From the NCBI GenBank assembly GCA_964447275.1, contig CAYURI010000003.1, forward strand, positions 510 to 64,509: 64,000 nt of DNA. The letters are read 5' to 3'. The stretch is from an uncultured Muribaculaceae bacterium (GTDB taxonomy: Bacteria; Bacillota_I; Bacilli_A; RF39; UBA660). Positions within the stretch are counted from its first letter, which is position 1; every line of letters begins with the position of its first letter. The position numbers and the translations under genes were made by a program. Below, piece by piece: positions 2,036-30,072 of this stretch. Below the pieces are notes generated by a model that was not told where the DNA came from, did not search any database, and saw only the letters and a program-made list of their open reading frames with translations.

Positions 2036-2650
2036 ATGAAGACAAAAGTTTATGAAGGAAAAACTGAAGTAGAAGCTTTAGAAAAAGCCACCAAAGAATT
2101 AAATTTAACTGAAGCAGAGGTTTTATATAAATCAGAAGAAGTAAAAGGGAAGTTATTTAAAGCCACCACAGTTAAAGTAAATGCAATTGCTATTTCAGAA
2201 GTAGAAGAGTTTATTAAAGAATATTTAAAACAAATTCTAGATGATATGGGAATAGAGACAACGTTCGAAAGCCGTATTAGAGAAAAGCAGATATATATAA
2301 AAATGTATTCTAATAATAATCCAATCTTAATTGGTAAGAACGGGCAGACTTTAGAAGCTTTACAAAACATTGTTAAAAATGTTGTAAGTAACCACATTGG
2401 TATTTATCCAGTTGTCATGTTAGATGTTGAAAACTATAAAGAAAAACAAGAAAAACGAATTGAAAGGCTCGCTAAAGACACGGCTCGTGAAGTATTAAAA
2501 ACTAAAATAGAAGCAAGGCTTGAGAATATGAACTCTTACGAAAGAAGAATAGTCCACAATATTTTAACAGACTATAAGGGGATCTATACTTCAAGTGAGG
2601 GCGAAGAGCCAAATCGTTACGTAGTTATAAAGATTAAGGAAGACAAATAA
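2036..2650 (+). CDS. jag: Jag/KhpB RNA-binding protein (KH + R3H domains)
   Basis: 204 aa. C-terminal R3H-like segment YERRIVHNILTDYKGIYTSSEGEEPNRYVVIK. Conserved yidC-jag synteny. Confidence 0.8.
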   Translation: MKTKVYEGKTEVEALEKATKELNLTEAEVLYKSEEVKGKLFKATTVKVNAIAISEVEEFIKEYLKQILDDMGIETTFESRIREKQIYIKMYSNNNPILIGKNGQTLEALQNIVKNVVSNHIGIYPVVMLDVENYKEKQEKRIERLAKDTAREVLKTKIEARLENMNSYERRIVHNILTDYKGIYTSSEGEEPNRYVVIKIKEDK

Positions 2651-2662
2651 GTCTTCTTTTTT
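2634..2662 (+). terminator. rho-independent terminator after jag
   Basis: GAAGACaaataaGTCTTC followed by TTTTTTT. Confidence 0.6.
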
Positions 2663-2666
2663 TAAT

Positions 2667-2690
2667 AAATTATTTCCCGGGAAATAATTT
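2667..2690. promoter_or_regulatory. 24-bp perfect palindrome containing a perfect Noc-binding site (NBS) TATTTCCCGGGAAATA (2671-2686), overlapping the -35 region of the mnmE promoter
   Basis: AAATTATTTCCCGGGAAATAATTT. Immediately followed by extended -10 TGCTATAAT (2693-2701). Confidence 0.75.
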
Positions 2691-2726
2691 CGTGCTATAA
2701 TAGGCGCGAAACAGGGAAGTGGAATT

Positions 2727-4079
2727 ATGAGTGATACAATATGCGCAATATCATCAGCTTTAGGATTAGGAGCTATTTCAATAATTAGAGTTAGTGGTCC
2801 TGAAGCAATTAATGATGCTAATAAAATTTTTAAAGGTAAAAGTTTACTAAAAGTAAAAGATCATAGTATCACTTATGGTCATATTTTAGATGAAAAAAAA
2901 ATAATTGATGAAGTTTTAGTCATGGTTATGAAAGGTCCCAAAACATATACAAAAGAAGATATAGTAGAGATAAATTGTCATGGTGGGGTAGCTGTAACTA
3001 ATAAAATATTGGAGGTCTTATTAAAAAGTGGCTGTCGTCTAGCAGAGCCAGGAGAATTTACTAAACGTGCTTTTTTAAATGGTCGTATTGATTTAATAAA
3101 AGCCGAAGCTGTTCAAGACTTATTAATGTCCGAAACTGAGAATGCGCGAAAGCTATCAATTAACCAACTAGAAGGCAAGCTATCAATTAAAATTATTGAA
3201 ATTAGAAAAAAAATTCTAAATCTAATTGCTAATATTGAAGTTAATTTAGATTATCCAGAGTATGATGATGCTATCGAAGTTACCAACAAGTACTTAAAAA
3301 GCAAACTTACAGATATTAAAAAGGATCTAAAAAGCTTACTTGATACTACTGAAAATGGTAAAATTGTCAAGTCCGGGATAAACGTAGCTTTAATAGGTAA
3401 ACCAAATGTTGGTAAGAGTAGCATACTAAATAAACTGCTTGATGAAGACAAGGCGATTGTTACAAACATTGCTGGAACAACTAGGGATGTAGTTGAAGGA
3501 TCATTTATCTTAAATGGGATAAAAATAAATTTAATTGATACTGCCGGAATAAGAAGAACGACTAATAAAATCGAGAAGATTGGGGTAGAAAAGACCGAAA
3601 AACTTTTAAATGAAGTCGATTTAATTGTTTTGGTGTTGGATAGTAATAGCAAACTATCAAGAGATGATAAAAAGTTGTTAGAAAAATTAAAAGATAAAAA
3701 TAGTATAATTTTTATTAATAAAACAGACTTAAATAGAAAAATTAAAATTCCAAAAACAAATAAAGAAGTGGTTTTCGGGAATACTATTAATAAAGATGGA
3801 CTAAAAGAATTATTAAATAAAATAACTGAAACGTTTAACTTAGATAAAATTGCGCTAAAAGATCCAACTTACATATCAAATATCAGGCAGAAAAACTTAG
3901 TAAGTGAAAGCTTAGATTTGATTGATAATTGCTTAAATAATCTTTCTTTCGATTATACAATTGATTTTTTAGCTTCTGATATTAAAAAAGCCTGGGATTT
4001 ATTAGGAGAAATAATTGGTGAAACATATAACGATGAATTGTTAGATGAATTATTCAGTAATTTCTGCTTAGGAAAGTAG
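2727..4079 (+). CDS. mnmE: tRNA modification GTPase MnmE
   Basis: 450 aa. G-domain motifs GKPNVGKSS, DTAG, NKTD. C-terminal CLGK. Confidence 0.9.
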   Translation: MSDTICAISSALGLGAISIIRVSGPEAINDANKIFKGKSLLKVKDHSITYGHILDEKKIIDEVLVMVMKGPKTYTKEDIVEINCHGGVAVTNKILEVLLKSGCRLAEPGEFTKRAFLNGRIDLIKAEAVQDLLMSETENARKLSINQLEGKLSIKIIEIRKKILNLIANIEVNLDYPEYDDAIEVTNKYLKSKLTDIKKDLKSLLDTTENGKIVKSGINVALIGKPNVGKSSILNKLLDEDKAIVTNIAGTTRDVVEGSFILNGIKINLIDTAGIRRTTNKIEKIGVEKTEKLLNEVDLIVLVLDSNSKLSRDDKKLLEKLKDKNSIIFINKTDLNRKIKIPKTNKEVVFGNTINKDGLKELLNKITETFNLDKIALKDPTYISNIRQKNLVSESLDLIDNCLNNLSFDYTIDFLASDIKKAWDLLGEIIGETYNDELLDELFSNFCLGK

Positions 4080-4086
4080 GGTTAAT

Positions 4087-5958
4087 ATGCAAAAAAAATA
4101 TGAAGTAGTTGTTGTTGGTGGCGGCCATGCCGGCTGCGAAGCATCTTATGCATCAGCGACAAAAGGTCATCATACGCTGCTTGTAACTACAAATGTAAAT
4201 AATATTGCTGATATGCCGTGTAATCCTTCGATAGGTGGGACAGCGAAGGGAATAGTCGTTAGAGAAATTGATGCTTTAGGTGGAATAATGGGAAAAGTTG
4301 CTGATAGATCTCATTTTCAAATAAAAATGTTAAATGCTAAAAAAGGGCTAGCAGTAAGATCTCTGAGAGCTCAGGCCGATAAAAAAGTCTACCCTAAAGA
4401 AATGCTAAAAGCTTTAAAAAATTGCACTAAACTAGATATTTTGGAAGGAATAGTTACTAAGCTAGTCGTTGAAGATAATAAAATCAAAGGGGTAATTATT
4501 GATGAAAACCAAACAATCTTTTGCGATGCTGTGATCTTAACAACTGGAACTTATCTAAGATCTCAAATATTAACAGGTAGTAATAAAGTATCAAGTGGGC
4601 CTCATGGGGAAAAAACCTCGTCCTTTTTAAGTGATAATTTAAAGAGTTTAGGTTTTGAAATTTTAAGACTTAAAACCGGAACGCCACAAAGAATAGATGG
4701 TTCATCAATTGATTTTAGCAAAATGCAAGAAGAGTATGGTGATAATGAGTATTACACTTTTAGCCATGATAATCCACCACTTTATAAAATAGAAGAGCAA
4801 AAGAAATGTTACTTATTATATACTTCAAAAGAAACTCATGAGATTATTAAGAAAAACTTATCAAAATCCAGCATGTATGGCGGCTATGTTGAAGGAGTAG
4901 GACCAAGATACTGTCCATCAATCGAAGATAAAATAGTAAGGTTTAGTGATAAAGAGCGTCATCAATTATTTTTAGAACCAGAAAGCGCTTATTATGATGA
5001 ATGGTATTTACAAGGGTTTTCAACTAGTATGCCTCATGATATTCAAGAGAAAATGGTTCATAGTCTAAAAGGGTTAGAGAACGCTAAGATTGTAAAATAT
5101 GCGTATGCCATAGAATATGATGCGATAAATCCATTACAAATTAAAGCTTCGTTAGAAACAAAACTAATATCAGGATTATATACCGCTGGTCAAATAAATG
5201 GCACTAGTGGTTACGAAGAAGCTGCTGCTCAAGGTTTAATGGCCGGAATCAACGCGGCTTTAAAATTAGAAAATAAAGAGCCTTTAATATTAAAACGAAA
5301 TGAAGCTTATATTGGGGTTTTAATAGATGACTTAGTAACGAAAGGAACTAAAGAACCATACCGTTTATTGACATCAAGAGCTGAATTTAGATTAATACTA
5401 AGACATGATAATGCGGATTTAAGGTTAAGAGAAAAAGGGTTCTCAGTTGGTTTAATTGATAAGAAGAAATACAATATTTTTATAAAAAAGCGTGAATTAA
5501 TAAAAAAGACGATAGAGTTATTAGAAACGAATCAATTAAGTTTAAATAGAGCCAATATTGAAAAATTTAAAATTAAAAATGTCCTTATTCCTAAAGCTAG
5601 CGTTAAGTTTTCAGACTTATTAAAAAGACCAGAGATCAATATTTACTTTATTAAAGAATTCATCGATATAACAGATGATAAAGAAATTTTGGAAGAAGTA
5701 GAAATAAATATAAAGTATGCTGGTTATATTGAAAAAGCTTATAAAGAAGCTGAAAGAATGTTAAAGTTAGAAGAAAAGAAAATTCCTTTAGATATTGATT
5801 ATAATAAAGTAAAAAACTTAGCCAGCGAAGCTAGACAAAAATTAAAATTAATAAAACCAATATCAATTGGTCAAGCGAGCAGAATAAGCGGTATAAATCC
5901 AAGTGATATAGCTATATTGGCAGTTTATTTAAAGAAGGAGTATCCTCAAAATGACTGA
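4087..5958 (+). CDS. mnmG: tRNA uridine 5-carboxymethylaminomethyl modification enzyme MnmG (GidA)
   Basis: 623 aa. FAD-binding N-terminus VVVVGGGHAGCEA. Conserved synteny. Confidence 0.9.
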   Translation: MQKKYEVVVVGGGHAGCEASYASATKGHHTLLVTTNVNNIADMPCNPSIGGTAKGIVVREIDALGGIMGKVADRSHFQIKMLNAKKGLAVRSLRAQADKKVYPKEMLKALKNCTKLDILEGIVTKLVVEDNKIKGVIIDENQTIFCDAVILTTGTYLRSQILTGSNKVSSGPHGEKTSSFLSDNLKSLGFEILRLKTGTPQRIDGSSIDFSKMQEEYGDNEYYTFSHDNPPLYKIEEQKKCYLLYTSKETHEIIKKNLSKSSMYGGYVEGVGPRYCPSIEDKIVRFSDKERHQLFLEPESAYYDEWYLQGFSTSMPHDIQEKMVHSLKGLENAKIVKYAYAIEYDAINPLQIKASLETKLISGLYTAGQINGTSGYEEAAAQGLMAGINAALKLENKEPLILKRNEAYIGVLIDDLVTKGTKEPYRLLTSRAEFRLILRHDNADLRLREKGFSVGLIDKKKYNIFIKKRELIKKTIELLETNQLSLNRANIEKFKIKNVLIPKASVKFSDLLKRPEINIYFIKEFIDITDDKEILEEVEINIKYAGYIEKAYKEAERMLKLEEKKIPLDIDYNKVKNLASEARQKLKLIKPISIGQASRISGINPSDIAILAVYLKKEYPQND

Positions 5959-6652
5959 AAAAGAATTTATAAAATTTCTACAAGAAAATAATATAAAATT
6001 TGAGCAAGAAATGCTTATAAAATTAAAAAAATATCAAGAAATATTACAGGAATACAATAAAAAGTTTAATTTAACGGCAATTGTTGATACTGAAGAAGTA
6101 TACTTGAAGCATTTTTGTGATTCACTTTTAGTCGCGACATTTATTAATTTTGAAAATTATAGTGAAGTTGTCGATATTGGTACTGGAGCTGGTTTCCCGG
6201 GGCTTGTTTTAAAAATCTTTTTTCCAAATTTAAAACTATATTTAATAGAATCTAATGGTAAAAAATGCCAATTTTTAAATGTTGTTTGTGTTGAGCTTAA
6301 TTTAAAAAATGTTACGATTATAAATGATCGAGCAGAAAACTTTGCTTTAAACAATTTAGATAAATTTGAAATAGTAATATCAAGAGCTGTAGCTAGTTTA
6401 AAGGTTTTAGCTGAACTTTGTTTGCCACTTTTAAGAAGTAATGGACTATTTATTGCAATGAAAGGCAAAGAGGGCGATGAAATTTCTGAAAGCGAAAATA
6501 TTATTAATAAGCTAAAAGGAGAACTAGTAAAAGTAGAAAAATATAAATTACCAGTTCTTAATCATGATCGGCTACTAATAATAATCAAGAAGATAGATTT
6601 AACTCCTAAAGGATATCCAAGGAATTATCAAGAAATAGTCAAAAAGCATTGA
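5951..6652 (+). CDS. rsmG: 16S rRNA (guanine527-N7)-methyltransferase RsmG (GidB)
   Basis: 233 aa. SAM motif VVDIGTGAGFPGLVL. Confidence 0.9.
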   Translation: MTEKEFIKFLQENNIKFEQEMLIKLKKYQEILQEYNKKFNLTAIVDTEEVYLKHFCDSLLVATFINFENYSEVVDIGTGAGFPGLVLKIFFPNLKLYLIESNGKKCQFLNVVCVELNLKNVTIINDRAENFALNNLDKFEIVISRAVASLKVLAELCLPLLRSNGLFIAMKGKEGDEISESENIINKLKGELVKVEKYKLPVLNHDRLLIIIKKIDLTPKGYPRNYQEIVKKH

Positions 6653-6681: not shown

Positions 6682-8031
6682 ATGAATAAAAATAAGAAGG
6701 GGCTGTCACATATGAATTTTGAGCCACAAATAGTTGAAGTAGGAATTGAAGAGATAATTCCTAATCGCTTTCAACCACGTTTAACATTTGACGAAAAAGC
6801 AATGGAGGAATTAGCAGCATCGATAAAAGAACACGGGATCATTCAACCGTTGGTTTTAAGAAGGGTTGAAAATAAATACGAAATCATTGCTGGTGAAAGA
6901 AGATATAAAGCCTCAATTATGGCTGGATTGCAGAAAGTTCCAGCAATTATTACTAACTTAGATGATAATAGTAGCGCTGAAGTAGCTCTTGTAGAGAATG
7001 TCCAAAGAAAAGGGTTAACACCAATAGAAGAAGCTAAATCATATAAAGTGCTATTAGATAGAGGATATATTACTCAAGAAGAACTGGCTAAAAAGATTGG
7101 TATTGCTCAACCAACTTTATCAAATAGACTTCGTCTTCTTAATTTAGATGAAGAAGTTCAAAAAGCGTTATTAGAAGAAAAAATATCTGAAAGACATGCT
7201 CGTAGTATTTTGCAAATTACTGACAAAGAAAAACAAAAAGCGTTATTAAAAAGAGTAATTGATGAAAGACTTACAGTAAAACAGTTAGATATGGAAATTC
7301 AAAATATGAATAAAGAAGTAAACAAAATGGATGATACACCTTTAATTGAAATAACACCTAGCGTTGAAGAAATAAAGACGACAGCAACAGATATAAATCC
7401 TCAAGTATTATCTCCAGGGATTGAAGAAATGCTAAAACCAGATCCAATGCTAACGCCGCTAACACCATTAAATAATAATCCGGTAGTTAGCGAAGCAATT
7501 ATTCCTTCAACAATGCCAATAAATAATAACCAAACCGGTGATGAAGAATCAGGAAGTGCGCCAATGGTATCATTAGAACCAAAGCCAGAAGCGATGATTA
7601 ATGTGAATATGCCAGCTGGTTCGACCCCTGAGCAAACTCCTCAACCTAGTCAAAATAAATTTTTCAACTTTTTAGAAGATGAAGAAGCTAACTTGAATAT
7701 CGCTGATAAACCAATCGAGACACCAACAGTAAATCCAGTTGTTGAACCAGCACCAAGCACAGTTGAAGTTCTTGATATTCCGATGCCATCACCAAACCTA
7801 AGTATGCAAAATGTTGTTGACCCGGTATCAAAGATAGATACTTTAGATCCTTCTTATGTTGCTCCAGTTGTCGAAACTGAAGAAAAAGCATATTCTTTAA
7901 CAGATGCGATAAATGCTCTAAGAGACACTGTTAAAGCAATAGAAGCTAAAGGATTATTAATTGATACGGAAGAGATTGATTTAGAAAACTTGTATCAAAT
8001 AATTATTAAAATAGATAAAAAAACTGAATAG
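6682..8031 (+). CDS. noc: ParB-family nucleoid occlusion protein Noc homolog with ~200-aa low-complexity P/T/N/V/E-rich insertion; true start may be ATG at 6712 (SD GAAGGGG)
   Basis: ParB N-domain with GERRYKAS arginine patch and an HTH (QEELAKKIGIAQPTLSNRL). Sits directly after rsmG, as noc does in Bacillus. A perfect NBS is present upstream at 2671-2686. Residues ~215-400 are compositionally biased. Confidence 0.75.
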   Translation: MNKNKKGLSHMNFEPQIVEVGIEEIIPNRFQPRLTFDEKAMEELAASIKEHGIIQPLVLRRVENKYEIIAGERRYKASIMAGLQKVPAIITNLDDNSSAEVALVENVQRKGLTPIEEAKSYKVLLDRGYITQEELAKKIGIAQPTLSNRLRLLNLDEEVQKALLEEKISERHARSILQITDKEKQKALLKRVIDERLTVKQLDMEIQNMNKEVNKMDDTPLIEITPSVEEIKTTATDINPQVLSPGIEEMLKPDPMLTPLTPLNNNPVVSEAIIPSTMPINNNQTGDEESGSAPMVSLEPKPEAMINVNMPAGSTPEQTPQPSQNKFFNFLEDEEANLNIADKPIETPTVNPVVEPAPSTVEVLDIPMPSPNLSMQNVVDPVSKIDTLDPSYVAPVVETEEKAYSLTDAINALRDTVKAIEAKGLLIDTEEIDLENLYQIIIKIDKKTE

Positions 8032-8055
8032 AAACTGCTTAGGCAGTTTTTTTCT
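8032..8055 (+). terminator. rho-independent terminator after noc
   Basis: ACTGCttaGGCAGT followed by TTTTTTT. Confidence 0.6.
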
Positions 8056-8165
8056 GCTTTAAACTTTTATATTGACATTTTTCTATTTAAAGTATATAAG
8101 AATAATTGCAAATGTTTATTATAAATAATATAATGTATTCTGTATAAAGAAGGGATACCATAATT

Positions 8166-10246: not shown

Positions 10247-11311
10247 ATGTTTAATAGATTAGATGATATTGTTTCAAGATATCAAGAAATTTCTGAAAAG
10301 CTAACAACTGATGAAGTAATTAGTAATTTTGAATTGATGAAACAATTACTAAAAGAACAAAAAAGTTATGAAAAAATCGTTCAAAAATATGAAGAATATA
10401 AAAAAGTTATAGCTCAAATTGAAGAAACTAAAGGAATGGTTAATGATCCCGAGCTAAGAGATATAGCTAACGAAGAATTAGATTTATTAAAAGAACAAGA
10501 AATCTCTTTAAAAAAGGAATTGGAAATTTTGCTTGTTCCTAAAGACGAAAATGATGAAAAAAACATTATTATGGAAATCCGTGGTGCCGCCGGTGGCGAT
10601 GAAGCTAATATTTTTGCTGGTGATTTATTTAGAATGTATGCTAAATATTTTGAAAGAAACGGGTGGAAAGTAGAAATTCTTAATGAAGTTGTTGGGTCAG
10701 CTGGTGGTTATTCCCAAATAGAATTTATGGTAAAGGGCGAAAATGTTTATGCTAAATTAAAATTTGAAAGTGGCGCTCACCGTGTTCAAAGAGTTCCTGA
10801 AACAGAAGCGCAAGGAAGAGTACACACATCAACCGCAACAGTTTTAGTTATGCCGGAAGCTGACGATGTTAACGTTGAAGTAAAAGAAGCGGACTTAAAA
10901 ATTGATGTTTACCACAGTAGTGGAGCAGGTGGGCAAAGTGTTAATACTGCTGACTCAGCAGTTAGAATAACCCATATCCCCAGTGGCATAGTAGTTACTT
11001 GTCAAACGGAAAGAAGCCAATTAAAAAACAAAGAAAGAGCTTTATCAGTTTTAAAAACAAGATTATATGACTATGAGCTTCAAAAGCAAGAAAGTAAAAT
11101 AGAGAGCGAAAGAAGAAATAAGATTGGCACGGGAGATCGTTCTGAAAAAATTAGAACATATAATTATCCTCAAAATAGAGTTACTGATCATCGTATAAAT
11201 TTTTCAACAATGGCTTTGGATAATGTTATGGAAGGTTATCTTGATGAAATTATTGAAGCTTTAATTGCTGCCAATCAAAAACTAAATCTAGAAAAAAGTG
11301 AAAATGAATAA
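10247..11311 (+). CDS. prfA: peptide chain release factor 1
   Basis: 354 aa with GGQ motif (SGAGGQSVN) and PxT-type region. Followed by prmC. Confidence 0.9.
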   Translation: MFNRLDDIVSRYQEISEKLTTDEVISNFELMKQLLKEQKSYEKIVQKYEEYKKVIAQIEETKGMVNDPELRDIANEELDLLKEQEISLKKELEILLVPKDENDEKNIIMEIRGAAGGDEANIFAGDLFRMYAKYFERNGWKVEILNEVVGSAGGYSQIEFMVKGENVYAKLKFESGAHRVQRVPETEAQGRVHTSTATVLVMPEADDVNVEVKEADLKIDVYHSSGAGGQSVNTADSAVRITHIPSGIVVTCQTERSQLKNKERALSVLKTRLYDYELQKQESKIESERRNKIGTGDRSEKIRTYNYPQNRVTDHRINFSTMALDNVMEGYLDEIIEALIAANQKLNLEKSENE

Positions 11312-22586: not shown

Positions 22587-23682
22587 ATGGAACCAAGAGA
22601 ATTATTTAAAAAATATGAGGAATTAAGCAAAAAAATAAATGATCTATGGAGGTTACTTTGACTTAGACAATAAACTAAGCGAGGTAGCCATTATTAAAGT
22701 TGAAATGAGTGCTCCTGGTTTTTGGGATGATATTGAGAATGCTAATAAAAAAGCAGCAAGATTATCGCAATTAGAAAAAGATTTAAATAAATACCAAGTT
22801 TTATTATCAAGATTAGAAAACATTAAAGATATTCTACTTATCGAAGATCCTAGTTTAGTAGAAGAATCGTCTAAAGAACTAATAGAAATTGAAAAAGAAA
22901 TTGAAAGCCTGGAAGTAAAAGTTTACCTTGGTGGTAAATATGATAACACCGATTGTTATCTAGAAATTCATCCTGGAGCAGGTGGAACAGAATCTTGTGA
23001 CTGGGCTAATATGTTAAAAAGAATGTATTTGAGATTTTGCGAAAAGAATAATTATAAAGCTGAAATAATTGAGGAACAAGAAGGCGAAGAAGCAGGCATA
23101 AAAAGTGTTACTATTTTAATTAAGGGTGACTATGCTTATGGTTACTTTAAAGGCGAAAAAGGTGTTCATCGTTTGGTTAGGATATCACCATTTGATTCTA
23201 ATGCCAGAAGACATACTTCTTTTGCTTCAGTTACAATTACACCAGTTTTTGAAGACGCTAAAGAAGTCGAAATAAAAGAAAAAGATTTAAAAGTCGATGT
23301 TTTTCATAGCAGTGGAGCAGGTGGGCAAAGTGTAAATACTAGTGATTCAGCAGTTCGAATAACCCATTTACCAACTAAACTTGTAGTTAGCTGTCAAACA
23401 GAAAGAAGCCAACTCCAAAACAAGGAAAGAGCCATGGATATGCTCAAAAACAAACTATATGAATTAGAACTTGCCAAGCATGAAGAATTTATGAAAGAAT
23501 TAAAAGGCGAGAGTGCTAGTATTAATTTTGGTAGTCAAATTAGAAATTATGTTTTAGAACCATATACTTTAGTTAAAGATAGCCGTACTGGATATCAAAC
23601 TGGTGATGCCTTAAGGGTTTTAGATGGTGATATACTTAATTTTATGGAAGCTTATTTAAAGTTTAAGGAGAAAAATGAATAA
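22587..23682 (+). CDS. prfB: peptide chain release factor 2 with programmed +1 ribosomal frameshift (frame 0 from 22587 ends at TGA 22659-22661; frame +1 continues from 22660)
   Basis: MEPRELFKKYEELSKKINDLWRLL* is followed in the +1 frame by DLDNKLSEVAII... The slippery site is GGAGGttaCTTTGAC (SD-like, then CUU UGA C). GGQ motif SGAGGQSVN is present. Confidence 0.9.
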
Positions 23683-28415: not shown

Positions 28416-29201
28416 GTGGCAAAAATAATTTCCTTAGTAAATCAAAAAGGTGGCGTTGGTAAAACAACCACCAGTATTAATTTATCAGCATCATTAGGGC
28501 ATTTTGGCAAAAAGACACTTTTAATTGATTTAGACCCTCAAGGTAATACATCAATAGGGTTAGGATTAAATAAAAGAGATATTAATGCCGATATATATGA
28601 TGTTATGACTAATAAGTGTGAAATTAGAAGAGCAATTATTAAAACCGAGTTTGAAAATTTAAGTATTATTCCAGCAACAATAAACTTAGCTGGACTAGAT
28701 ATTGAGTTTGTTAAAAAGTTCTATGATGATAAAGATTTTCATCAAAATGAGCAATTAAAACGAGTATTAGATACAATTAGAGGCGATTTTGATTATATCA
28801 TTTTAGATTGTCCGCCGGCTTTAGGGATTTTAACAACAAATGCTTTGGTAGCTAGCGATTCAATTATTATTCCGGTACAGTGTGAGTTTTTTGCCCTAGA
28901 AGGAATAACTCAATTATTAAACTCAGTTATTATGATTCAATCAAATTTAAACTCAAATTTAAAAATAGAGGGCGTCCTTCTAACTATGTTAGATGCGAGG
29001 ACCAATATTGGTTTAGAAGTAGTTGAAGAAGTAAGAAAATATTTTAAAGACAAAGTATTTAATACAATTATACCTAGATTAGTTCGTCTTGTTGAAGCAC
29101 CATCACATGGTAAACCAATCAGCGAATATGATCCAGGAAGTAAAGCAACAATGGCATATGAAAATTTAGCTAAGGAAGTGATTTTAAGAAATGGAGAATA
29201 A
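28416..29201 (+). CDS. soj: chromosome partitioning ATPase ParA/Soj (GTG start)
   Basis: 261 aa. Deviant Walker A KGGVGKTT. Confidence 0.9.
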   Translation: MAKIISLVNQKGGVGKTTTSINLSASLGHFGKKTLLIDLDPQGNTSIGLGLNKRDINADIYDVMTNKCEIRRAIIKTEFENLSIIPATINLAGLDIEFVKKFYDDKDFHQNEQLKRVLDTIRGDFDYIILDCPPALGILTTNALVASDSIIIPVQCEFFALEGITQLLNSVIMIQSNLNSNLKIEGVLLTMLDARTNIGLEVVEEVRKYFKDKVFNTIIPRLVRLVEAPSHGKPISEYDPGSKATMAYENLAKEVILRNGE

Positions 29202-30072
29202 AAAGAAAGCATTAGGTAAAGGATTAGAACAATTATTTTCTGATGAGAGAATTGATTTTAACAACTTTGAACAAAAGATTTATGAAAATACTAAAGAAGA
29301 AGATATTGTTAGTATACCTATTGAAGAAATAAGACCCAATCCATATCAACCAAGAAAAGACTTTAATGAAGAAGCTTTAAAAGAATTGTGCGAATCAATT
29401 AAAGTTCATGGTGTTGTTCAACCAATTATTGTTAAAAAAAGTATTAAAGGTTATGAACTTATTGCTGGCGAAAGAAGAACAAAAGCTTCAAAAATGGCTG
29501 GCCTAACTCATATTCCAGCAATAATAAGAGAATTTAATGATGAAGAAATGATGGAAATAGCTCTTGTTGAAAATATTCAAAGAGAGAATTTGAATGCCAT
29601 TGAAGAAGCAGAATGTTATTTGAAAATTCTTAATACCAAACATTTAACTCAGGAAGAACTAGCTAAAAGATTTGGTAAAAGCAGAAGCTATATTACGAAC
29701 CTTTTAGGGATCTTGTCATTACCAGAAATAGTAAAAAACATGGTAATCCAAAAAGGCCTATCAATGGCTCACGCAAGAAACTTAAGTAAACTATCAGATG
29801 TTAATTTACAAATTAGTTTAGCAGAGCAGATTGTTAAAGATGGGATGAGTGTTAGAGAATTAGAAAAAATCGTTAATAACGAAGAAATGGAAAAGAAAGT
29901 TAAAATCAAAAGAGCTTCTAATACGAACCCTAAATATAAAATGTATGAACAAATAGTCAGTGATAAAACAGGAAGTAAAGTGGCTATAAAAACTAATAAG
30001 ATAGAAATATTTTTTGATTCAGAAAAAGATTTAGAAAGAGTTTTAGAAATTTTAGATATTACAGTTGAATAG
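29191..30072 (+). CDS. spo0J: chromosome partitioning protein ParB/Spo0J
   Basis: 293 aa ParB N-domain (GERRTKAS) plus HTH. Overlaps the parA stop. Confidence 0.9.
   Translation: MENKKKALGKGLEQLFSDERIDFNNFEQKIYENTKEEDIVSIPIEEIRPNPYQPRKDFNEEALKELCESIKVHGVVQPIIVKKSIKGYELIAGERRTKASKMAGLTHIPAIIREFNDEEMMEIALVENIQRENLNAIEEAECYLKILNTKHLTQEELAKRFGKSRSYITNLLGILSLPEIVKNMVIQKGLSMAHARNLSKLSDVNLQISLAEQIVKDGMSVRELEKIVNNEEMEKKVKIKRASNTNPKYKMYEQIVSDKTGSKVAIKTNKIEIFFDSEKDLERVLEILDITVE

Follow-up and report, generated by a model that had tools for sequence, protein, structure and literature searches.

What role is played by a perfect palindrome that stands just ahead of an operon ending in a gene for a ParB-family protein? 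The question is raised by a 64-kb stretch of DNA from an uncultured Muribaculaceae bacterium (GTDB lineage Bacillota_I; Bacilli_A; RF39; UBA660), namely positions 510 to 64,509 of contig CAYURI010000003.1 in assembly GCA_964447275.1 (hereafter the window, numbered from its first letter), in which the 24-bp palindrome AAATTATTTCCCGGGAAATAATTT lies at 2667–2690, between jag and mnmE. Direct reading of the letters establishes that this palindrome is perfect, and a pattern search that its central 16-mer TATTTCCCGGGAAATA, at 2671–2686, agrees with the consensus Noc-binding site (NBS), palindromic over 14–16 bp and written (T)ATTTCCCGGGAAAT(A), at 16 of 16 positions; no strand attaches to either element, and both are exactly as an initial annotation, made from the sequence alone, had described them. 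The same 16-mer forms the core of the duplex that was co-crystallised with Noc, 5'-GGATATTTCCCGGGAAATATCC-3' (PMC7383237). As a DNA motif, 2671–2686 is a textbook NBS. We find that it is the sole match to TATTTCCCGGGAAATA in the window, even with up to three mismatches allowed, where 1.6e-5 matches are expected by chance (window composition, 29.7% G+C), and that of the four perfect 16-bp palindromes in the window this one alone extends to 24 bp, a length at which 0.02 perfect palindromes of any sequence are expected. A pattern search for parS with up to two mismatches gives none in the 64 kb, the interior of parB included, which upholds an absence previously noted by eye. We consider it probable, from the sequence comparisons that follow, that the palindrome is a functional NBS-type site, that is, a high-affinity nucleation or loading site for the Noc-type CTPase whose gene ends the operon.

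The site is retained in related genomes. A scan of one genome per species gives 80 related loci (1.32 Mb; protein identity 40–68% in the best-matching segment), all from metagenome-assembled genomes of uncultured gut 'Bacilli/Tenericutes' and almost all with the gene order rnpA-yidC-jag-mnmE-mnmG-rsmG-noc-like. These loci hold 24 perfect NBS and four with one mismatch, compared to 3.4e-4 expected, no NBS with two mismatches, and two parS, both at the same locus. The mnmE upstream region is covered by 60 loci, of which 19 have an NBS in the jag-mnmE gap, and ten of these 19 keep the window's distance between the NBS and the extended -10 element of the mnmE promoter. Alignment of these ten promoters with that of the window, from genomes whose Noc-like proteins are 40–66% identical to the window's, reveals an invariant NBS core and an invariant TG-n-TATAaT in flanks that have diverged (mean column identity 61%). 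To judge from this alignment, the NBS is under purifying selection at its orthologous position. In five further loci the NBS is centred ~18 bp further upstream (~-47), and in L017, L025 and a second copy in L040 it lies still further upstream of the mnmE -10. Other copies are found just past the end of dnaN, across the replication origin oriC (L028, L053, L071 and L043); one separates rsmG from the noc-like gene (L067), one lies within rsmG (L052), and L055 and L077 have theirs in a murA-like gene.

Two of these copies carry details of their own. Ahead of the L067 site, part of its left arm is duplicated (atatttcccaag-TATTTCCCGGGAAATA, L067:4370-4410), which hints at how sites may arise or move, and in L052 the NBS (2923-2938) is carried by an ISREI peptide in rsmG.

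The position of these sites relative to the origin is then of interest. The window begins with the 5' part of dnaA on the reverse strand (1–443; the gene runs past the window start, and its N-terminus was read by eye), followed by the dnaA-rnpA intergenic region (444–770; no strand assigned), which gene order and DnaA boxes identify as presumably one side of oriC; the boxes in or near this gap comprise a perfect TTATCCACA at 433–441 and further one-mismatch and TTATTAACA-type boxes. The NBS is ~2 kb from this dnaA and DnaA-box cluster at 1–770. Among the relatives, the density of NBS as a function of distance from rnpA is 16 per 100 kb for the jag-mnmE bin (0–2 kb) and 6.4 per 100 kb for the bin after dnaN (-4 to -2 kb); beyond 4 kb, four sites are found in 970 kb, a fall of ~40-fold. 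Few, perfect and origin-proximal, the NBS of this clade suggest clustering at oriC, and, as these loci are read, what the relatives have conserved is the presence, at most a few kb from oriC, of one or a few perfect NBS that are linked in cis to noc and have no fixed operator geometry. A distribution check proposed with the initial annotation thus has a partial answer: one copy in the 64 kb of the window, and sites in relatives that are concentrated near oriC and not scattered.

Metagenome contigs scanned for the 16-mer give at least 120 loci, with 56 contigs of G+C below 0.32 among the matches listed, most of which share the aaat/attt flanks of the window's NBS. Among these 56, 43 carry origin-region genes (dnaA, dnaN, gyrA, tadA, dnaX, ybaB, recR, rnpA, yidC, jag or mnmE) in the few kb available, and the remainder of the low-GC contigs among the matches listed are mostly 1–2 kb fragments. 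Some matches, above all at higher G+C, are expected by chance in a large collection, and the higher-GC matches were left out of the inference unless a noc gene was present. The jag-NBS-mnmE arrangement is repeated in L083 and L091, and L083, whose mnmE is 61% identical to the window's, also has five consensus parS in the tadA-gyrA gap, across oriC. The window would lack parS because it covers one arm only, since in L083 the parS lie on the other side of oriC.

The gyrA-tadA gap is a hotspot of sites in low-GC gut Bacilli. In L148:200-1770 (OIYG01000111.1) and L106:150-1490 (OIYS01000847.1), composite arrays lie between gyrA and tadA-dnaX; their unit of ~45 bp joins a parS, a DnaA box and an NBS, each of them perfect (aTGTTTCACGTGAAACA-TTGTGGATAA-aat-TATTTCCCGGGAAATA), occurs five times in L148 and three to four times in L106, and is accompanied by NBS-only units. 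Such arrays would be a natural hub, close to the origin, at which ParB, DnaA and Noc-type proteins meet. Related arrangements are six NBS in a 105-bp tandem repeat (L190:2468-3007), three NBS with three parS (L103:2838-3330), and arrays of consensus parS, seven in L105:1749-2706 and the five in L083 (1337-1571).

The protein most likely to read the site is encoded by the last gene of the operon (6712–8031, forward strand; Pfam ParB_N and helix-turn-helix, or HTH), a Noc-like member of the ParB family of 439 aa, which consists of a ParB_N and HTH part (residues 1–205), a linker, and a Noc-type C-terminal domain (CTD; residues ~396–434). A Shine-Dalgarno sequence, GAAGGGG, stands 9 nt 5' of the ATG at 6712, and a database protein of 439 aa that is 100% identical (P0001) begins at this codon. 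A longer open reading frame of 449 aa from 6682 was rejected: it lacks a Shine-Dalgarno sequence, and P0001 and the relatives, which begin at the same point, favour the 6712 start. What looks in relatives like a conserved upstream peptide in the same frame, 'KGLIS/KGAD', is a translation of the Shine-Dalgarno sequence. The best matches in the PDB are Noc of Geobacillus (7NG0, E 4e-56) and of B. subtilis (7OL9), ahead of Spo0J, with KorB also found (E 9e-12).

At the four positions that set specificity, 173, 179, 184 and 201, Noc has QKKR and ParB has RTAG, with R173 and G201 invariant in ParB; Q173 and R201 switch specificity to NBS, and a single K/R at 179 or 184 suffices (Jalal et al., PMC7383237). 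The window protein has Q173, R179, N184 and R201, that is, the two switching residues with one K/R, and Q and R where a chromosomal ParB has R173 and G201; the ParB-type residues named beforehand as a reason to abandon the Noc assignment are not those that we read. All 80 relatives have Q, K/R, N (S or T in a few) and R at these positions, R179 being present also in L003. The recognition surface of the 439-aa protein is, on these residues, Noc-type. Two cytidine triphosphate (CTP) motifs, GERR (G61 E62 R63 R64) and ENxQR (E95 N96 Q98 R99), are invariant in the family. Scanned alone, the C-terminal 63 aa match only NCBIfam nucleoid_noc (TIGR04285), at positions 215–255 of 255 (E 2.9e-4, 20 bits), and an AlphaFold model of the CTD has a helix and two strands (predicted local distance difference test score, pLDDT, 86–90). 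Against the nucleoid_noc model, the protein in full length reaches 271 bits (profile positions 1–202), below the cutoff of 315, compared to 334 and 323.5 bits for control Nocs; when the family profile was compared to a canonical Noc, the alignment was confined to residues 6–198, and the CTD homology emerged only from the scan of the CTD by itself.

Taken together, the residues and motifs, which are observed, point to a mechanism whose steps are those of the ParB/Noc family. A dimer of the 439-aa protein would read both half-sites through its HTH, with Q173 and R201 contacting the NBS-specific bases and R179 contributing a permissive positive charge; CTP binding would then shut the N-terminal domains into a clamp, which would slide onto flanking DNA and assemble a nucleoprotein complex over a few kb. 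Since the site is ~2 kb from dnaA/oriC, such a complex could cover the origin region and the operon. Noc spreads over 8–10 kb around NBS in S. aureus (PMC5540599).

Several points weigh against a functional site of this kind. Forty-one of the 60 loci have the same promoter and protein and no NBS there, and the distance from NBS to -10 falls into classes centred at ~-29, at ~-47 and further upstream, a variation that also speaks against an operator as the selected trait. Position 184 is N and not K, though one K/R at 179 or 184 is enough (PMC7383237). Scattered NBS could exist elsewhere in the source genome, of which 64 kb were covered, and the metagenome sample is arbitrary, with repeated species and with members not tied to the clade of long Noc proteins.

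The alternative that survives best holds that the palindrome is mainly a transcriptional operator, the Noc-like protein being a KorB-like, CTP-dependent autorepressor with a negligible role in chromosome organisation. We regard this as rather unlikely, and the promoter is where it has most in its favour. The site lies, as first described, between the jag terminator (hairpin 2636–2659) and an extended -10, TGcTATAAT, at 2693–2701 on the forward strand, recognised by its sequence and by the TG-n-TATAaT that is near-invariant 5' of mnmE in relatives. A 17-bp spacing from this -10 would put the -35 hexamer at 2673–2678 (forward strand), within the NBS; the letters there, TTTCCC, match TTGACA at three of six positions, and a promoter scan calls no -35 at 2673–2678. 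The centre of the NBS is 17 bp 5' of the -10 hexamer, so that the site would span ~-37 to -22, overlapping the -35 and spacer of the operon's only recognisable promoter. The same spacing recurs in 11 diverged genomes, the L067 site is directly 5' of the noc-like gene, a ParB-family repressor, KorB, is among the PDB matches, and the membrane helix needed for occlusion is absent. However, a dedicated operator is difficult to reconcile with the 41 loci that keep promoter and protein without the site, with eight other loci in which the NBS is ~20 to >100 bp further upstream than the window's, and with copies at places that are not noc promoters: after dnaN and gyrA, within dnaX, and in arrays next to parS.

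A loading site at the promoter may still affect transcription. Because the NBS occupies the -35/spacer region, autorepression is plausible at the window's promoter, and we give slightly less than an even chance to negative autoregulation of mnmE-mnmG-rsmG-noc, which here would likely be a side effect or secondary function. Variable spacing and the lack of the NBS in two thirds of relatives imply that promoter occlusion is not a conserved feature. The initial proposal that Noc could repress its own operon is therefore sustained by the geometry (~-37 to -22) and not by conservation, there being at least three spacing classes and ~two thirds of relatives without an NBS. The literature searched, to which the original B. 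subtilis map by chromatin affinity precipitation on microarrays (ChAP-chip; Wu et al. 2009) did not belong, contains no report of an NBS at a noc-operon promoter or of Noc autoregulation.

A second alternative, that the palindrome acts as an RNA hairpin (a second or bidirectional terminator, or part of an mnmE 5' leader) and resembles an NBS incidentally, is very improbable. RNA folding does yield a 10-bp hairpin, and the L046 palindrome, placed right after the jag stop codon and ahead of a T-run, has the appearance of a terminator. In the window, however, jag/khpB already has a separate canonical terminator ahead of the palindrome (2636–2666, forward strand, from a terminator scan; 9-pair stem, 6-nt loop and T-run), the two folding as separate hairpins, and the palindrome is 5' of the -10 and thus outside the mnmE transcript. 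The exact sequence is kept, with no compensatory changes, copies of the identical 16-mer also occur within coding sequence and, in arrays, next to parS, and an Rfam scan of 2300–3000 gives no match, only one sub-threshold chance hit.

Equally slim is the chance that parS in this lineage has come, by drift, to have the sequence of the NBS, such that the palindrome is a ParABS centromere bound by a second ParB-family protein of canonical length. This protein (293 aa) is encoded by parB at 29191–30072 (forward strand; Pfam ParB_N and HTH_ParB), which follows parA/soj at 28416–29201 (forward strand; Walker A KGGVGKT; Pfam AAA_31/CbiA); the pair, overlooked in the initial annotation, follows tilS and ftsH at a distance of ~20 kb from the noc-like gene. 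The drift explanation draws on the lack of a consensus parS in 64 kb despite the presence of parAB, on the unusual A201 of this ParB, and on an NBS that is origin-proximal, as parS is. Against it, the residues of the 293-aa ParB at 173, 179, 184 and 201 are R-L-S-A, with R173 of the parS type retained, and in relatives consensus parS arrays occupy the gyrA-tadA gap, near the NBS yet distinct from it, as in L083 with its five parS and a jag-mnmE NBS. A separate ParA-ParB pair also implies that the 439-aa protein is a Noc paralog and not the centromere-binding ParB, and rules out a further candidate explanation, in which the 439-aa protein is the genome's only ParB (parA-parB at 28.4–30.1 kb) and the NBS its centromere. 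That the palindrome is due to chance, or is merely a SmaI/XmaI site (CCCGGG) in AT-rich flanks, is scarcely credible: AT-rich genomes hold many short palindromes and a second CCCGGG is found at 6196, but the 16-mer has an expectation of 1.6e-5 in the window and 28 further NBS copies lie at orthologous or origin-proximal places in relatives.

The A201 of the 293-aa ParB is a deviation in its own right, since G201 is called invariant in ParB (PMC7383237). Two higher-GC rsmG-parA-parB contigs carry a perfect NBS at or just past the 3' end of their ParB gene (L087:8720-8735 and L147:2663-2678), with ParB residues R-K-Q-G in L087 and R-K-N-R in L147, the latter being of the promiscuous class (PMC7383237); the ParBs of these contigs, outside the lineages of classical Noc, could have a specificity that is relaxed or NBS-like, or the NBS matches could be due to chance. 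Higher-GC genomes with canonical Noc have a perfect NBS inside the noc coding sequence (L110:1502-1517, L183:1728-1743 and L126:2833-2848), which in L110 and L183 appears to encode ISREI just before R201, as suggested by ISREI in the translated HTH; linkage of NBS and noc appears to have been reached by different routes in different lineages.

If the palindrome is a loading site for the Noc-type protein, what would the protein do there? Noc membrane binding and function require an N-terminal amphipathic helix (PMC4331003, PMC8429893), and the N-terminal amphipathic motif (aa 1–10/15) is 'extremely' conserved among the Noc homologues examined (PMC4331003); the canonical Noc in L126 carries it as MKNQLARFFGLG. 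The window protein begins MNFEPQ, six residues ahead of the first ParB_N strand, and the amphipathic helix and its spacer are absent from it and from 36 of 36 aligned relatives, which begin at the same point, a few with 2–5 additional N-terminal residues. Because this helix is missing, classical nucleoid occlusion by membrane tethering is doubtful, unless another segment, e.g., an FFNF motif in the linker, substitutes for it. Of the first proposal, that the site marks origin-proximal DNA for nucleoid occlusion, the origin-proximal half stands (dnaA and DnaA boxes at 1–770) and the occlusion half is weakened by the absence of the required helix.

The linker is variable and rich in Pro and Glu, and ~120 of its residues have pLDDT <50 and are predicted to be disordered. 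Within it lies NKFFNFLEDE (F317, F318, N319 and F320; window 7660–7671), the FFNF of which is invariant in 36 aligned members; its hydrophobic moment, 0.41–0.44, compares with 0.42–0.43 for the Noc helix, and the segment is acidic and not predicted to be helical. That FFNF is a relocated membrane anchor is speculation. The longer motif NKFFNFLEDE(e)ANMn, set in an otherwise hypervariable disordered linker, loosely recalls (S/A)RFFGLG, which forms the core of Noc's membrane-targeting helix, and EVLD and DPVS.I..LDP.Y form other conserved islets in the linker.

We compare the system to those that are known. The Noc-NBS systems of B. subtilis and of S. aureus share with it the identical 16-bp site, a ParB-family gene right after rsmG in mnmE-mnmG-rsmG-noc, Q173, K/R179 and R201, the CTP motifs, the Noc-type CTD and a separate ParB in the genome. 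The window protein differs from these Nocs in that it lacks the N-terminal amphipathic membrane-targeting sequence and spacer, has the linker insertion (~120 residues predicted disordered, with FFNF), has N184 and not K, and scores 271 versus 315 bits; parAB is 20 kb away in the window and not adjacent. The NBS of the window's clade are apparently few, perfect and within a few kb of oriC, compared to ~70 in B. subtilis and 41 in S. aureus. In these two species the NBS span the origin-proximal half to two thirds of the chromosome.

ParB-parS (Spo0J) is similar in having an origin-proximal palindromic loading site for a CTP-dependent sliding clamp, linked in cis to the gene of its binder, and few, near-perfect sites. 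The NBS differs from parS at two specificity positions per half-site, however; the window protein has Q173/R201 and not R173/G201, its gene lacks an adjacent ParA partner, and the genome has its own ParAB. KorB-OB of RK2 and other ParB-family transcriptional repressors pair a ParB-family CTPase with a palindromic site that overlaps, or is next to, the promoter of the operon encoding that CTPase, which allows autoregulation, but KorB is a distant homolog (E 9e-12 versus 4e-56 for Noc), the position relative to the promoter varies among relatives, and no KorA-like co-repressor is evident here. On sequence grounds, the system around the NBS is a variant of Noc-NBS, with the same site, recognition residues, synteny and CTD and a parS-like, origin-concentrated distribution.

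To our knowledge, Noc has been studied in two model organisms only, where its hallmarks are scattered NBS copies and a membrane helix at the N-terminus. In the large uncultured clade described here the exact NBS is retained, as are the residues by which Noc recognises it, yet the membrane helix has been lost, a long disordered linker with an invariant motif has been gained, and the NBS are concentrated at the origin, often at the promoter of the noc-like gene's own operon. We make a tentative proposal, which we rate as possible and not as likely. In this clade of low-GC, small-genome, uncultured gut Bacilli, Noc may have changed from an occlusion factor that acts chromosome-wide through membrane tethering into a system centred on the origin, which lacks the membrane helix, bears a long disordered FFNF linker, and loads no more than a few kb from oriC, on a single perfect NBS or a few of them: at its own promoter, after dnaN, and in gyrA-tadA arrays with parS and DnaA boxes. 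It would organise or regulate the origin, e.g., by controlling replication initiation or positioning the origin, and would autoregulate. Control of replication initiation has been reported for S. aureus Noc. Taken alone, the one NBS of the window is securely identified and belongs, without surprise, to a class of motif already known; what would surprise a specialist is the picture at the level of the clade, with a helix-less Noc, origin-clustered NBS and composite parS-DnaA box-NBS arrays. If this picture is true, the Noc-NBS module is an evolvable origin-marking device and not a nucleoid-occlusion factor alone, and the clade offers a natural system for how oriC-adjacent ParB-family clamps interact with transcription, ParB-parS and DnaA.

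The genes around the site are as follows. Between the dnaA-rnpA region and the palindrome lie rnpA (773–1102), yidC (1099–2034) and jag/khpB (2036–2650), each assigned by Pfam. The operon itself, all on the forward strand, comprises mnmE (2727–4079; Pfam TrmE_N, MnmE_helical and MMR_HSR1), mnmG (4087–5958; Pfam GIDA, E 2.8e-162), rsmG (5951–6652; Pfam GidB) and the noc-like gene, with gaps of 8, -8 and 60 bp, and ends at an intrinsic terminator directly 3' of the noc-like stop codon (8030–8058, hairpin 8030–8051, forward strand, from a terminator scan). A single mnmE-mnmG-rsmG-noc-like transcription unit is supported because terminators flank genes with short gaps; the gene order first proposed is thus confirmed by Pfam and by the flanking terminators, with the amendment that the last gene encodes an atypical 439-aa Noc-like protein from 6712 and not an ordinary Noc of ~280 aa. 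It is followed by argS and then prfA (Pfam). Two class-I release-factor genes (PCRF and RF-1), presumably prfA and prfB, are found at 10247–11311 and 22639–23682. Unlike in most bacteria, rpmH is not 5' of rnpA, and a terminator-like hairpin, aaacccac...gtgggttttt, is found there instead (700–772).

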